Source: Fistulifera solaris (lineage: Eukaryota). Taken from it: a stretch of DNA of 64,000 bases. The stretch covers positions 1,736,001-1,800,000 of the forward strand of contig AP026164.1 of assembly GCA_030295235.1 (NCBI GenBank). Reading direction: 5' to 3'. A program made the translations under genes and the position numbers. The notes under the pieces were generated by a model that worked only from the letters and a program-made list of their open reading frames with translations, made no database searches and was not told the DNA's origin. The first letter of the stretch is position 1. Each line of letters opens with the position of its first letter. Of the stretch, positions 56,439 to 61,956 are shown piece after piece.

Positions 56439-57034
56439 GTGACTCTCTTTTTCATTCTTTACCTTGCCATTGAGGTCCTACATGCGCTCGGTTGCCATTA
56501 AGATCTTTAAAAGAAAGCGTCCTCTCACTTTATTTTAGAGTTCAAAAACAAGCGTTCGGCGCACTGTATTCCCCCTCCAATAGTGCCTAGCATTTGAATC
56601 TACGTCAGTATATTGCTAGCTAAAAGCATATGGCATCTAATACTTTTTCTTTGCGCGTTAGTGGGTCGACAATTGGGTGTTACTGGTAGAGAGCAGTTGA
56701 CAGCTCTTAACGAACGAGAATGTTGAAATCTGGGATATGCAGTATTGCATTGAATACAGCACTGCTCTTTGAAAATCGGAGCAAACTGGATTTAGACCTT
56801 AAGTAAAGACTTCTTGATAGACTAGACTATTGCCATGCGAGGTCGTTTGAGAATTACCAGGTCCCCGTATTTCCAGTTCGTTTCAACGGTCATATACTTT
56901 ACCCAGTACCGGTACGATACGATGACATGTCGACGATAAAAAAAGAAAATAAGCCGCGCATTTATTTATTTCGATCGATCATCAACTTGATATTTACCAT
57001 TTTGTATCAAGTAGTTGTCACTTTTAATCAGAAA

Positions 57035-58630
57035 ATGGCGAACCCAGCAGAAGATCTCGACGCATTTCTAACGACCGTCGAACTAAAGCTCCGCGGGCCA
57101 TTCTCGTCCTTAGAACTTACCAAAACAGCCCAAACCGTCGGATTGCGGAAGCCAGAGGACGATTCGGCGCCGGTCGAATTTCTGGAACGATTGGCACAGG
57201 TTCTGCATCGCACGGACAAAATAACAATTCTGCGTATACTGATAGGTTTGCTAGGATTTGACCCGGACCACGGTGAGCTGGATGCGCAAATTGACGCGAT
57301 TTTGACGGATGCCCAGGAATCCCCCAAACATGAAGAGTGGGTTCGTGTCATAGCGGGCCTGGTACAGGGCATCATGTTTCAGGAGGAAGGAGAAGATTCA
57401 AATGAATGCCGAAGATCATGTCGGGGAGAGGAGTCAAATGATTTATTGGAAAAAACATGCAATGCTATCATTAATTCTGTGCAACAGGTGGAGAAAAGCA
57501 CCGAAGGTGTGGACGCCAGTGAACACCCTCGTCTTCAGGCGGACGCCAATCCTATGTTCGCTCCATTTCGATATGCCTTGCTCAAGCCGGAAATGATTGA
57601 GCAGATTGTTCCGAAAGAGCATGGACATTTTACGGTGAACCGTTCTTCTGATTTACTGACAATGGACGCGAAACAGGATGCGTTAAAAGCCCAGGAAGAA
57701 AAAGAGCACGAAACCATCCCTGGAATGGGAGCCATCGCCAACGAAACAAAACCAGTAGCAGTTAAAGAGACTCTGACGCCAACCTTTCCAGGATTCCGTT
57801 CTACATCGTCGAACAACAAACCCACTGCGGGAGCACAACGACCTAAGTCATCCATGTTTATAACTTCCAAAAAGCCCGCAGCTGTCATGGCTAAAACTGT
57901 TTTGCATCAACGGCGAGCCGGTGGAGCTCAAGCGCTGGTAGGGAAGGGCCGGGGTCGGATGGCGGGGGCAAGTGGCAGAACGACAACGCTCATTGCCGGA
58001 AGTACCGTGGCTGGAGTGAGAGGTAGAGCTATGCAAGGTACGGCAGCGCGTTCTCGTATGAAAATGGTAGATGATGAGGAAGCGAATGTCTTGTCGACCA
58101 GTCAGCAGCACCAACAGCAAGTTGCGACGCCACAGCAAGTTAAAGCTGGCCGGAAACGAAAAGCAGAGATACTAGGGAATGATAGCACAAAGTTAGCGAA
58201 AAGAGAAAATGACGCAACCGCAGTCCATGGTAGTTCTGACGATGCCATGTCGGGATCTACGAAGAAGACTGGAGATGTTTCGTTAGCAACTGCTGTACCG
58301 GCTGTTGCGAGAACGACACTGAAAGCTGAATCCTCAGAGAAGGCACTTGCTTCCGATAAGACGTCTGGAGGACACCATCGGCAACAAGACTGGCGGTCAC
58401 TACTTGAAAACAAATCGAATCGTTTATCGGACGAAGATCGTTCGCGCGTGGAGCAATTCTTCATGGATCATACCAATCCGACCCCCAGTCAAACGCATTA
58501 CAAGATGAAGCTGCATGAGGAACGAACCAATGATCCGACAACAGGACAGCCAATGAAAGAGACGTATTATCTCGAACTAGATTACACGAATTTCACGTCA
58601 AAGCAGTCGAAAAAAGTAAAACGATATTGA
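57035..58630 (+). CDS. NELFA: Negative elongation factor A-like protein
   Basis: N-terminal ILRILIGLL...ILTDAQ...EEWVRVIAGLV; HFTV; RMKMVD. C-terminal VEQF...NPTP...MKLHEE...LELDYTNFTSKQSKK parallels the conserved NELF-A blocks. Confidence 0.7.
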   Translation: MANPAEDLDAFLTTVELKLRGPFSSLELTKTAQTVGLRKPEDDSAPVEFLERLAQVLHRTDKITILRILIGLLGFDPDHGELDAQIDAILTDAQESPKHEEWVRVIAGLVQGIMFQEEGEDSNECRRSCRGEESNDLLEKTCNAIINSVQQVEKSTEGVDASEHPRLQADANPMFAPFRYALLKPEMIEQIVPKEHGHFTVNRSSDLLTMDAKQDALKAQEEKEHETIPGMGAIANETKPVAVKETLTPTFPGFRSTSSNNKPTAGAQRPKSSMFITSKKPAAVMAKTVLHQRRAGGAQALVGKGRGRMAGASGRTTTLIAGSTVAGVRGRAMQGTAARSRMKMVDDEEANVLSTSQQHQQQVATPQQVKAGRKRKAEILGNDSTKLAKRENDATAVHGSSDDAMSGSTKKTGDVSLATAVPAVARTTLKAESSEKALASDKTSGGHHRQQDWRSLLENKSNRLSDEDRSRVEQFFMDHTNPTPSQTHYKMKLHEERTNDPTTGQPMKETYYLELDYTNFTSKQSKKVKRY

Positions 58631-58686: not shown

Positions 58687-59943
58687 CTAGCGAAACAATG
58701 TGACTAGGTCAGATTGTAAATCTTTCAGGAATGAATCCTCATCAATCGTCATTCCTTCTCTCAACTGAATAGTTGGTTCATGTAGTCTTTTCAAAACCCA
58801 CTTTTCCTCCTCTTTATTTAAGGCAAGCCCTAACGCGCTATTTCGGAACGATGCTATGTCTTTGCCGTTATTCATATTCACCCATGCGTTCACGCATTCT
58901 TCGACTGTGGGGTCGATTCCTTTTGTATCGCAACCTGCAGATTTCGAAAATGCCAATTCATTAGAAAAGATTGGTGTGTAGCTGCAAAACCTTGATCATT
59001 ATTTTCATACCTGTGTTACATGTTCCAAGACGTGGGAAGGAGGGGTACTGTCGTATTTAGTATTACCCGTTCCATATCGACGAAGTTTCCGCAACTCCTC
59101 TATTTTCTCTGGATTTCGGACCGCTTTTCCGGCGATCAAAGCATAGCGGAGTAACAAGGCAATGCGCGGAGCCGACCTAGCGTTTTCCAATGTACGTTTC
59201 AGCTGCAACAAGATATGAGCGTCACGGCTCGAAAAGGGTTGAAAGGGAAACGTGCGCCCGGGTCGACTGGGTCGATCCGCCATTCCTGCTGCGATCATAC
59301 AGAGATGTCGACAAACGTTTTCAGCGCCCTCGAGTTGATTCCAATGTCGCTCTTCCGCAAGGTCGGACACACGCTGTCGATCCGCTTCTTTTACTTTGGC
59401 TAAGCCATCAATATTTCCCGGTCGGTCAAACGATGTTTGCAATTGCTTGAACGGGAGATCTGTAAATGATTGAGTTTGAGCGACTAGACATCCCGACAAA
59501 AACTCCAGAGTCGTTGCCTTATCTCTGGCCAACAATATGATCTCGAATCTTGCACAATTAGAAAGCACTACACATTCCAGTAACCAGCTGTTGATTTCTT
59601 TGCCATCGCAATGAGCAGCCGCACTTTGCAAGATGTACTCTTGCAAGGCATGCAACGTCTTCGGCCGTGGTACGAAAAAGTCACGGCCATCCCCCAGTAC
59701 CTCGTCTTTCCAGCGCCATGTATCCCTAACCGTCTTGCTGAAATTTATCGGATCATCCAATGATGACCATTTTAGCGAGAATAGGTGAACGTCGTAATCG
59801 ATACTCGAAGATCGATCCTCTCGTGTCGCATGAAGGGAACATGGACGGGGAATACTGCGCAAATAAGGAATTGTAGAGAAACATTGGGCAAGCGTTGTCA
59901 ACGCGAATGAATTGAGCACTACCAGGAGACCATTTGCACCCAT
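58687..59943 (-). CDS. Plastid-targeted glutamyl-tRNA reductase (HemA)-like protein lacking the NADPH-binding domain; intron 59010-58935; frameshift near 58921
   Basis: Motifs ECVVLSNCARFEI, RHLCMIAAGM, DAHILLQLKR and ALIAGKAVR, followed shortly by dimerisation-type LHEPTIQLR. Signal peptide ...LAQC-F. Confidence 0.7.
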
Positions 59944-60472: not shown

Positions 60473-61651
60473 TTAAGCTACAATATAACGAGCTTGAACC
60501 GGGTTCGAAGCCACTCCTCGTTCTTCACAATGGGTAAAGCCGGCCTCTTTCATGAATTCTTGACATTTGGTTGCCGGCAAACCGCATGTACCTAACCCAG
60601 CCCCATGATCTTCGGATGTGGAACAGGCAAGACATAGAAGGCATGAAAAGCCGTAAAACAAGGCAGACGCGGGCGATTGAATATTAGCCGTCACCGTGTT
60701 TTGGCATTTGATATCGACAACAATCCAGCATCCTCGAGGACTCAATTTTGTTTTAACATCACGAATCAAGCTTTGCGGATCCGTCATATCGTGCAACAGG
60801 TCGTGCGAATAGACAAATGAGAATTCTGAAGCATCACCGTCTGGTCCATCTCCCACGCCCCGTTCCGCAACATTGCACACGACAATATTGGGAATGTTTT
60901 CGGCATGAATTCGTTCTTCAAGAACTTGCAATGAAAGTGCGGATGCTTCATACGCGTGTATGGTTGATTTCGGAAACGCCTTGGCCAGTGTGATGGAAGA
61001 CGCCCCGCAGCCACAACCGATATCGGCCACGTGAACACCCCGTTCCAGCATTTCGACCAGTGGCTCGCCGGTGGCTGGAACATTTACATCTTTTAAGACA
61101 TCCTTCACCAGATAATCCCGAAACCAATTGTAATTTTTGCGGTCGATGCCTCGAATAATTTGTGCATTGCTAAAATCATAATCCACTCCTTTTCCGGATT
61201 GAATCGCCCGTACGACCACAGATTCCGCCCGCTTGACCAGAGGAAGCAACATCTCAAACAACCCCGCCAAGCTGCGCGGGTTTGTCGCAGGATTGCACAA
61301 CAATGGAGCGTAACCCGGTGTCATGGAAAATTTGCCATCACGGAATGTGCAAATACCAGCCCCGGCGGCCTGTGCCAAAAACTCTTGTAACCAGCGTTCT
61401 GACCACCCCGTCGCTTCAGCAAACTCTTGAGCAGTGACTGGTCGTTTCATGGCTTCCAAGTGATCGTACAATTCCAGAGAATCTCCGGCATGAATCAAAG
61501 CACCCGTGAAGGAATGCATCACGATACACCACAGGTGCTGTTCCGGTGATAGCTTCATCATTCGCTTGGCTACAAACAGACCCAGCGCAGTGCCGGAGGC
61601 AAATGCTGTGATGAGGAGTGGGAGGTATGATTTAGAGACGGGAGCCGTCAT
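60473..61651 (-). CDS. Class I SAM-dependent methyltransferase with N-terminal winged helix (Rv2258c-like)
   Basis: GDSLELYD...TAQEFAEATGWSERWLQEFL; VADIGCGCG; LAKAFPKS; DLLHDMTDP; GAGLGTCG; EAGF. Confidence 0.85.
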   Translation of the reverse strand: MTAPVSKSYLPLLITAFASGTALGLFVAKRMMKLSPEQHLWCIVMHSFTGALIHAGDSLELYDHLEAMKRPVTAQEFAEATGWSERWLQEFLAQAAGAGICTFRDGKFSMTPGYAPLLCNPATNPRSLAGLFEMLLPLVKRAESVVVRAIQSGKGVDYDFSNAQIIRGIDRKNYNWFRDYLVKDVLKDVNVPATGEPLVEMLERGVHVADIGCGCGASSITLAKAFPKSTIHAYEASALSLQVLEERIHAENIPNIVVCNVAERGVGDGPDGDASEFSFVYSHDLLHDMTDPQSLIRDVKTKLSPRGCWIVVDIKCQNTVTANIQSPASALFYGFSCLLCLACSTSEDHGAGLGTCGLPATKCQEFMKEAGFTHCEERGVASNPVQARYIVA

Positions 61652-61956
61652 TTTTAACTATGAATATTGTAAACTTTGTTTTGATTGCAGAATAAAAATT
61701 TTCGATGATTATTTGCTCCACATTATTTTTTTGTTTTTTTCTCAGCCTGTGTCCCTCCGTCGTCTTGCCGTGCACCGTAACTCTTGGCATCGTGACGTCA
61801 CAAGGCCAGGTATCTTCAACGAATCTTTTTGGCGGGTTTTCGAGTGCATATTTTTGCACTTTCGCTTTTTCGACCCATCGAACTCCAACCACCATTTTCA
61901 CAACAACACAACTTCTTTTTCTTGTTTCACATTACAACTTTAATCGCTTGAGCCGA

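Follow-up and report, generated by a model that had tools for sequence, protein, structure and literature searches.

The question raised by this locus is what a glutamyl-tRNA reductase (GluTR, HemA) can still do once its NADPH-binding domain is missing. HemA consists of catalytic, NADPH-binding and dimerisation domains, and in the synthesis of chlorophyll and haem the GluTR step is rate-limiting and the most tightly regulated. A gene of the pennate diatom Fistulifera solaris, located in the 64,000-nt stretch of DNA analysed here (hereafter named the window), had been described in an earlier note as encoding a GluTR-like protein devoid of the NADPH domain, a candidate pseudo-enzyme or regulator of plastid tetrapyrrole synthesis. 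GluTR control in diatoms and dinoflagellates has been little studied, and a paralogue that is conserved while its active site has been rebuilt is a direct, testable candidate for such control.

The paralogue gene consists of two exons and is intact

The gene lies on the minus strand, with its ATG at position 59943 and the TAG ending at 58687, and its two exons (Table 1) give a spliced product of 393 aa. Exon 2 of the window matches residues 312–393 of the homoeologous protein GAX13223.1 (FisN_17Hh156; P0376 in our set, 393 aa), in which the junction is in frame. In the window this exon is out of frame because one T was missed in the T4 homopolymer at 58921–58924. The donor at 59010 was supported by spliced contigs of the public runs X2–X4, run X1 being unspliced. 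Since the four runs come from one study, none is on record as RNA and X1 is unspliced, they are evidence for the splice and for the base that the assembly lacks, but not for the level of expression. The homoeologous copy (contig C3, locus L005) has a 75-nt intron in the same place, and in this assembly it carries the same short T run together with a compensating extra base. The hemA of this genome has 99% identity to that on record for F. solaris. Both canonical hemA copies of the assembly also contain single-base homopolymer shifts; the assembly is therefore prone to indels and the paralogue gene is intact, the exon-2 frameshift being an assembly error and not a biological one. In-frame GT/GC-AG introns listed by a script were rejected: the true intron is absent from that list, the window being one base short. 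Given homopolymer errors in both hemA and both paralogue copies, frameshifts elsewhere in this genome are also suspect.

Table 1. Features of the GluTR paralogue gene and its product, with positions in the window
Feature	Position	Strand	Remarks
Exon 1, codons 1-311	59011..59943	-	Leader, catalytic domain, linker and start of the spinal helix; ORF, with donor from spliced contigs
GT-AG intron, 76 nt, with CTAAT branch-like motif	58935..59010	-	Joint found in 3/4 public runs
Exon 2, codons 312-393 and stop	58687..58934	-	Remaining spinal helix and shortened dimerisation-type three-helix domain
T4 homopolymer, one base short in the assembly	58921..58924	.	Extra T in 4/4 runs
Bipartite-type leader: hydrophobic segment, putative cleavage C21/F22, Ser/Thr/Arg-rich stretch	59800..59943	-	Heuristic
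Family-specific motif WxWKDxxLGxGxDxFxP, residues 76-92	59668..59718	-	
SNCARFE catalytic strand-turn	59542..59562	-	Cys130 = M. kandleri Cys48, Arg132 = Arg50, Thr47 -> Asn
PFSSRDAHILLQ substrate loop	59203..59238	-	Arg240, Asp241, His243, Gln247
GKAVR end of the catalytic domain and 26-residue linker at the HemA Rossmann position	59038..59130	-	
LHEPTIQLR, equivalent of HemA LHGP, dimerisation domain	58759..58785	-	His363 invariant

By codon comparison the paralogue was shown to be under purifying selection (dN/dS of 0.19 between the two copies, 263 codons), and it evolves much faster than HemA, for which the pair of hemA copies gave 0.015 (155 codons).

The genomic neighbours of the gene are unrelated. 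A convergent 607-aa ORF (56807–58630, plus strand) has no Pfam match and may be NELF-A-like; only 56 bp separate its end from the paralogue's stop codon, and the 3' UTRs of both probably overlap. The upstream neighbour on the same strand (60473–61657, minus) encodes a class I SAM methyltransferase with an Rv2258c-like winged helix, an architecture of bacterial type. Among 51 metagenome loci of the family this methyltransferase was not a conserved neighbour, and no conserved gene neighbours were found in these loci beyond near-identical loci and antisense-frame artefacts.

The protein derives from GluTR

The earlier note had read from the sequence a GluTR catalytic-domain pattern with the nucleophile Cys, a diverged substrate loop, and the motifs GKAVR and LHEPTIQLR. 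All of them are present, as LSNCARFE (residues 127–134), SSRDAHIL (238–245), GKAVR (272–276) and LHEPTIQLR (362–370; window 58785–58759). A Pfam comparison supported the assignment in part: GlutR_N was matched by exon 1 with an E-value of 5e-5, but the score of 23.6 bits is weak and lies under the 27-bit cut-off. The same domain was detected at E<=0.01 in 77 of 114 family members. The derivation from GluTR stands in spite of this weak match, since the profile-profile comparison of 148 family members with 40 diatom HemAs gave a probability of 95.5% (E 1.5e-8) and the predicted fold matched that of GluTR.

For the structural comparison, AlphaFold2 models of the family member P0033 (mean pLDDT 91.6) and of the homoeologue P0376 (87.9) were used. 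With VIA-align, the P0033 model matched Arabidopsis GluTR (4N7R) with Z 18.1 (rmsd 3.8, 229 aligned) and Methanopyrus GluTR (1GPJ) with Z 14.1 (rmsd 6.4, 232 aligned); the corresponding values for P0376 were Z 16.7 (rmsd 3.5, 244 aligned) and Z 13.1 (rmsd 5.5, 233 aligned). Among 48,161 chains these two GluTRs were the only matches with Z>=8, the next ones reaching Z 7.2 and <=6.4. The alignments start at the first strand and continue through the whole dimerisation domain (up to residue 524 of 4N7R and residue 404 of 1GPJ), with an identity of 14–19%. In the P0376 model a helix at residues 70–83 overlaps the N-terminal motif, and a long helix at 303–346 (the spinal helix) is followed by helices 352–370 and 377–392. 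The top six Foldseek matches were GluTR chains, and the best E-value of a sequence alignment search of the PDB (0.0037) corresponded to Arabidopsis GluTR. Structure matches in the ESM Atlas, made with a low-confidence Atlas model (TM 0.41–0.47), were all to HemA-type clusters; the feature matches (0.76–0.83), to short bacterial GlutR_N proteins or unnamed clusters, are leads only. The profile-profile and structural matches make the homology of the paralogue to GluTR secure.

Homology does not make the protein a HemA. The score of P0376 against TIGR01035 was 11.9 bits, versus a cut-off of 209.55 and 384.1 for the HemA control P0257, and all five family members tested were far under the cut-off. 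With this low score, no NADPH domain and a changed substrate loop, the paralogue is outside HemA.

The NADPH domain has been lost

The spliced protein has 85 residues between GKxxR and LHEPT, in agreement with the approximately 90 aa estimated before, versus 245 in canonical diatom HemA (as measured in five HemAs); about 150 residues of the NADPH domain are replaced by a linker of 26. Spacing between GKxxR and HxP ranged from 74 to 142 residues (median 86) in the 74 of 224 sequences with all three anchors, the few long values being due to intron read-through or to a mis-anchored motif.

The claim that the Rossmann domain is missing between the two motifs was borne out across the family: PF01488 was found in none of 114 members, and the Rossmann GAG motif (GAGxM) in none of 224 family sequences versus 119 of 120 HemAs. 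A missed Rossmann exon was also searched for, and tblastn with the HemA Rossmann segment gave no match in the window, locus L004, the homoeologous locus L005 or the 51 metagenome loci. In 25 of these 51 loci, those that were measurable, the genomic distance from GKxxR to HxP was 255–524 nt, versus 735 nt needed by HemA, and is therefore too short for a Rossmann domain. Two complete canonical hemA genes, the separate full-length copies that the earlier note had proposed to look for, are located elsewhere in the genome (C1 and C2). The HemA Rossmann segment had two matches in the genome, both of them hemA genes, and no separate copy was found. Taken with the models, these sequence comparisons indicate that the paralogue arose from GluTR through a clean deletion of its NADPH domain. 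Since the domain that supplies NADPH is absent, the protein cannot reduce alone by the HemA route, as had been claimed. Neither of the observations that would have refuted the earlier note, a Rossmann domain in a missed exon or assembly gap or the lack of any GlutR_N match, was made.

That the gene might be a pseudogene of hemA, or that its model might lack an exon, is hardly credible. The window frameshift after the intron, and the short run with a compensating base in the homoeologue, would be expected of such an artefact, but it is refuted by the runs (missing base in 4/4, spliced form in 3/4), by the in-frame homoeologue, by hundreds of orthologues with the same gap and by the genomic spacing; the similar homopolymer slips in both copies of hemA, an essential gene, also count against it.

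Reduction by an unconventional route is improbable. Electrons would reach a glutamyl-thioester from outside, by way of a separate Rossmann protein, a partner HemA acting in trans, flavin or ferredoxin, or a cofactor at the LGxGxD loop. The residues of the first half-reaction are kept and the new N-terminal motif contains a glycine-rich GxG loop, but neither a stand-alone Rossmann copy in the genome nor a Rossmann segment near the gene in the 51 metagenome loci was found, and the Gln beside the hydride path is now His.

The active site is remodelled

Conserved residues were compared with those of M. kandleri GluTR, which keep their own numbering, with the register taken from the family-HemA profile alignment. 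Cys130 and Arg132 occur in all 110 rows with a residue there, and His243, Gln247, Gly272 and Arg276 in 114 of 114 rows; all of them are also present in the 24 most distant members. The Glu/Asp134 of the carboxylate site is kept. Around these residues the pocket has changed. Thr47 is replaced by Asn129 in 108/110 rows, and the Gly of the HemA motif GEGQ by Arg240 in 113/114; Asp241 takes the place of Glu, and the position of His243 is occupied by Gln183 in diatom HemA and by Glu101 in M. kandleri. The GL(D/E)S..xGExQIL loop of HemA is replaced by GMA..(insertion)..PFSSRDAHIL, and the DS pair (M. kandleri Ser94) is not kept in the family.

His213, the equivalent of M. kandleri His84, was found in 93 of 114 rows. 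Codon 213 of the homoeologue P0376 encodes Arg, while the window copy, P0002, P0003 and P0378 keep His; the Arg213 homoeologue is possibly an allele of reduced function. P0203 and P0223 have NCKR instead of NCAR.

The family-specific motif near the N-terminus includes W78, K79, G84 and G86, present in 94 of 94 full-length rows, and it accounts for 9 of the 31 columns that are conserved at >=95% in these rows. It appears to replace the 'EVREKLAIP' of HemA, with an inferred register, as the profile alignment is weak there: the alignment to HemA has a probability of 55% at the N-terminal motif and of 10.6% in the C-terminal part, and the register there was taken from the secondary structure of the models.

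Mean top-residue frequency in the family is 0.60–0.68 in the pocket but drops to 0.39 for the spinal helix and 0.43 for the dimerisation domain, whereas in HemA it is uniform (0.84–0.88); since the HemA set contains diatoms only, it is the within-protein pattern alone that can be compared. The pocket being more conserved than the spinal helix and the dimerisation domain, selection acts mainly on the pocket. The alignments thus portray an active site that is remodelled, not decayed. The term 'pseudo-enzyme' is consequently doubtful, given the invariant Cys130 and Arg132, the new invariant His243 and a conservation concentrated in the pocket. Of the roles suggested in the earlier note, this pocket-centred conservation favours binding or hydrolysing Glu-tRNA over heterodimerising with HemA.

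A non-catalytic partner, which would pair with HemA through the dimerisation-type domain and inhibit, anchor or stabilise it, like plant FLU or GBP, is on the unlikely side. The spinal helix and the three-helix C-terminal domain are kept, His363 is invariant (105/105 rows with a residue), canonical HemA is present in the same genome, and FLU acts on the dimerisation domain of GluTR (PMC4726326). Nevertheless, the dimerisation domain is divergent and shortened, particularly in its first helix (GlutR_dimer, PF00745, in 11/114 members; weak C-terminal profile match), and is among the least conserved parts, with 2 of 57 columns at >=95%, while the HemA surface that it would have to meet is nearly fixed (0.84; 41/81 columns). 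Moreover, a partner of this kind leaves the invariant Cys, Arg and His unexplained.

The same residues, together with the aromatic W76, W78, F90 and F234, might form a pocket that binds without turnover. It could hold glutamate-1-semialdehyde (GSA) as a Cys thiohemiacetal, to buffer it or to deliver it to GSA-AT. Alternatively it could bind a tetrapyrrole, with Cys130 and His243 as ligands and the two Trp stacked on the ring. Being toxic and unstable, GSA requires channelling (PMC6399207), and neither mode requires NADPH. Even so, we regard a ligand sensor or carrier as rather unlikely, because the basic motifs of the tRNA side (GKxxR, QLKR) are kept or strengthened and DUF2470 (GBP-like) genes, with seven matches, already exist in the genome.

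A plastid-like leader

The window protein passes a home-made plastid-leader heuristic (a hydrophobic segment plus [ASGC]F). This strict form was passed by 75 of 158 family N-termini versus 72 of 83 HemA N-termini, and a relaxed form (F/W/Y/L) by 119 of the 158; the internal controls gave 0/148 and 0/83. From these leaders, import of the nucleus-encoded paralogue into the plastid is likely. In two unnamed distant members, P0182 and P0188, the leader is very long and contains two hydrophobic segments, a pattern that resembles euglenophyte plastid-targeting presequences.

Distribution of the family

Sequence searches retrieved 247 family proteins, and, with clustering at 50%, 254 representatives. 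The earlier note had proposed to look in other algae for orthologues with this deletion, and they were found in diatoms (Fistulifera, Mayamaea, Amphora, Cylindrotheca and Thalassiosira exigua), in dinoflagellates, mostly Symbiodiniaceae (Symbiodinium, Durusdinium, Effrenium, Cladocopium and Dinoflagellata sp. MGD), and in the green alga Cymbomonas tetramitiformis. As most members are unnamed, this taxonomic range is a lower bound. The named members are annotated as hypothetical, by a single GluTR domain or, mistakenly, as uidB; the Symbiodinium members P0203, P0384 and P0390 carry this last label at NCBI, apparently a misannotation. A quickly built tree with 49 rows, rooted at the midpoint and containing several long branches, serves as a description alone and supports no claim about the donor or the order of events; it placed the named non-diatoms in one well-supported group of 14. 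Two narrow motif-pattern scans of GTDB contigs for prokaryotic relatives returned 6 and 22 stretches, none of them confirmed by tblastn; with patterns so narrow this is weak evidence of absence.

The accessible parts of the literature searched, including PMC6078071, PMC13564367 and PMC3592843, contain no description of the family, and the supplements could list such genes. A survey of the haem pathway of Phaeodactylum (2025) reports a single GluTR gene (PMC11914136).

A non-reducing Cys-His acyl-enzyme as the proposed explanation

The paralogue is built on HemA and probably half-works like it. The best explanation, to which we give somewhat less than even weight, is a plastid Cys-His acyl-enzyme that would catalyse Glu-tRNA deacylation or non-reductive glutamate transfer, perhaps braking ALA synthesis. 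The glutamyl donor, most likely plastid Glu-tRNA, would still be bound, with Arg132 holding the side-chain carboxylate. Cys130 would attack the aminoacyl ester to give a glutamyl-thioester, as in HemA, and His243, without NADPH for reduction, might activate water or an acceptor, the net result being Glu-tRNA deacylation or glutamyl transfer. HemA substrate would likely be drained or held in this way and ALA and chlorophyll synthesis throttled, a physiological role that is the weakest link of the proposal. If true, this would be a natural case of the GluTR first half-reaction without reduction.

The His243 site is that of the HemA residue that faces the incoming nicotinamide; E. coli Gln116, at the same position, presumably serves hydride transfer, its mutation leaving the esterase. 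M. kandleri Arg50, His84, Ser94 and Glu99 presumably bind glutamate. The newly conserved basic residues K79, R240, K249 and R250 would fit RNA or an acidic substrate.

The HemA reaction begins with an attack of the Cys on the aminoacyl bond of Glu-tRNA, and NADPH, supplied by the second domain, then reduces the thioester (PMC3778395, PMC6399207). GluTR also has an esterase side activity, which good accommodation of NADPH is thought to prevent (PMC4726326). Diatoms have light-dependent POR only (PMC12016751), and organisms in this situation have been argued to need tight suppression of ALA (PMC9992760); a brake role is therefore plausible, although unproven.

Several points weigh against the acyl-enzyme. 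The proximity of His243 to Cys130 derives from the alignment alone, and since M. kandleri has Glu at the His243 site, this position is not the same in every HemA. Plastid translation would suffer if Glu-tRNA were hydrolysed without regulation. The lower proportion of family N-termini passing the strict leader heuristic, and an evolution much faster than that of HemA by dN/dS, would also seem to speak against it. With Thr47 replaced by Asn, the DS pair lost and His213 in 93/114 rows, the pocket is altered, and the substrate may therefore be neither glutamate nor tRNA.

Another reading is an acyltransferase with a Cys-His pair on the GluTR scaffold and an unrelated substrate (for example a pigment, lipid or protein acceptor, and a donor other than Glu-tRNA). 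It could account for the replacement of several glutamate-pocket residues by new invariant ones and for the patchy algal distribution, yet it is highly doubtful, as the carboxylate site retains Arg132 and Glu/Asp134 and no pathway link was found, the neighbours being unrelated and not conserved.

Under the glutamyl acyl-enzyme, a new class of plastid enzyme can be put forward tentatively, a Cys-His aminoacyl-tRNA deacylase or glutamyl-transferase on the GluTR scaffold that controls how Glu-tRNA is divided between translation and tetrapyrroles. In diatoms and dinoflagellates it could act as the dark brake on ALA synthesis; alternatively, it could provide the donor step for a tRNA-dependent glutamylation. 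In more general terms, this second, remodelled HemA copy, present in diatoms, in dinoflagellates that live as coral symbionts and in at least one green alga, probably serves another purpose than HemA, possibly that of restraining pigment synthesis.

Comparison with known systems

GluTR (TIGR01035; PF05201+PF01488+PF00745; 1GPJ, 4N7R, 5CHE, 5YJL) and the paralogue have the same catalytic fold and spinal helix, a C-terminal helical domain with HxP, the GKxxR motif and the QIL/HIL..Q helix, as well as the nucleophile Cys, the carboxylate-binding Arg and, in algal GluTR, the plastid-type leader. They differ in the changes from GEGQ to RDAH and from TCN to NCA, in the loss of GLDS with an insertion of 13 residues, in the new WxWKD..LGxGxD motif and in the shortened first helix of the dimerisation domain.

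GBP has a fold that we take to be of the DUF2470 type, unrelated to the paralogue. Seven matches to DUF2470 (PF10615) were found in the genome (contigs C29, C3, C5, C4, C27 and C6), and they represent candidate GBP-like genes. What FLU and GBP of plants and FLP of Chlamydomonas may have in common with the paralogue is a role in the post-translational control of plastid ALA synthesis (PMC4726326, PMC9992760). The means differ, since FLU has a TPR fold (PMC4726326) unrelated to the paralogue, whereas the latter is itself derived from the enzyme and has kept its nucleophile.
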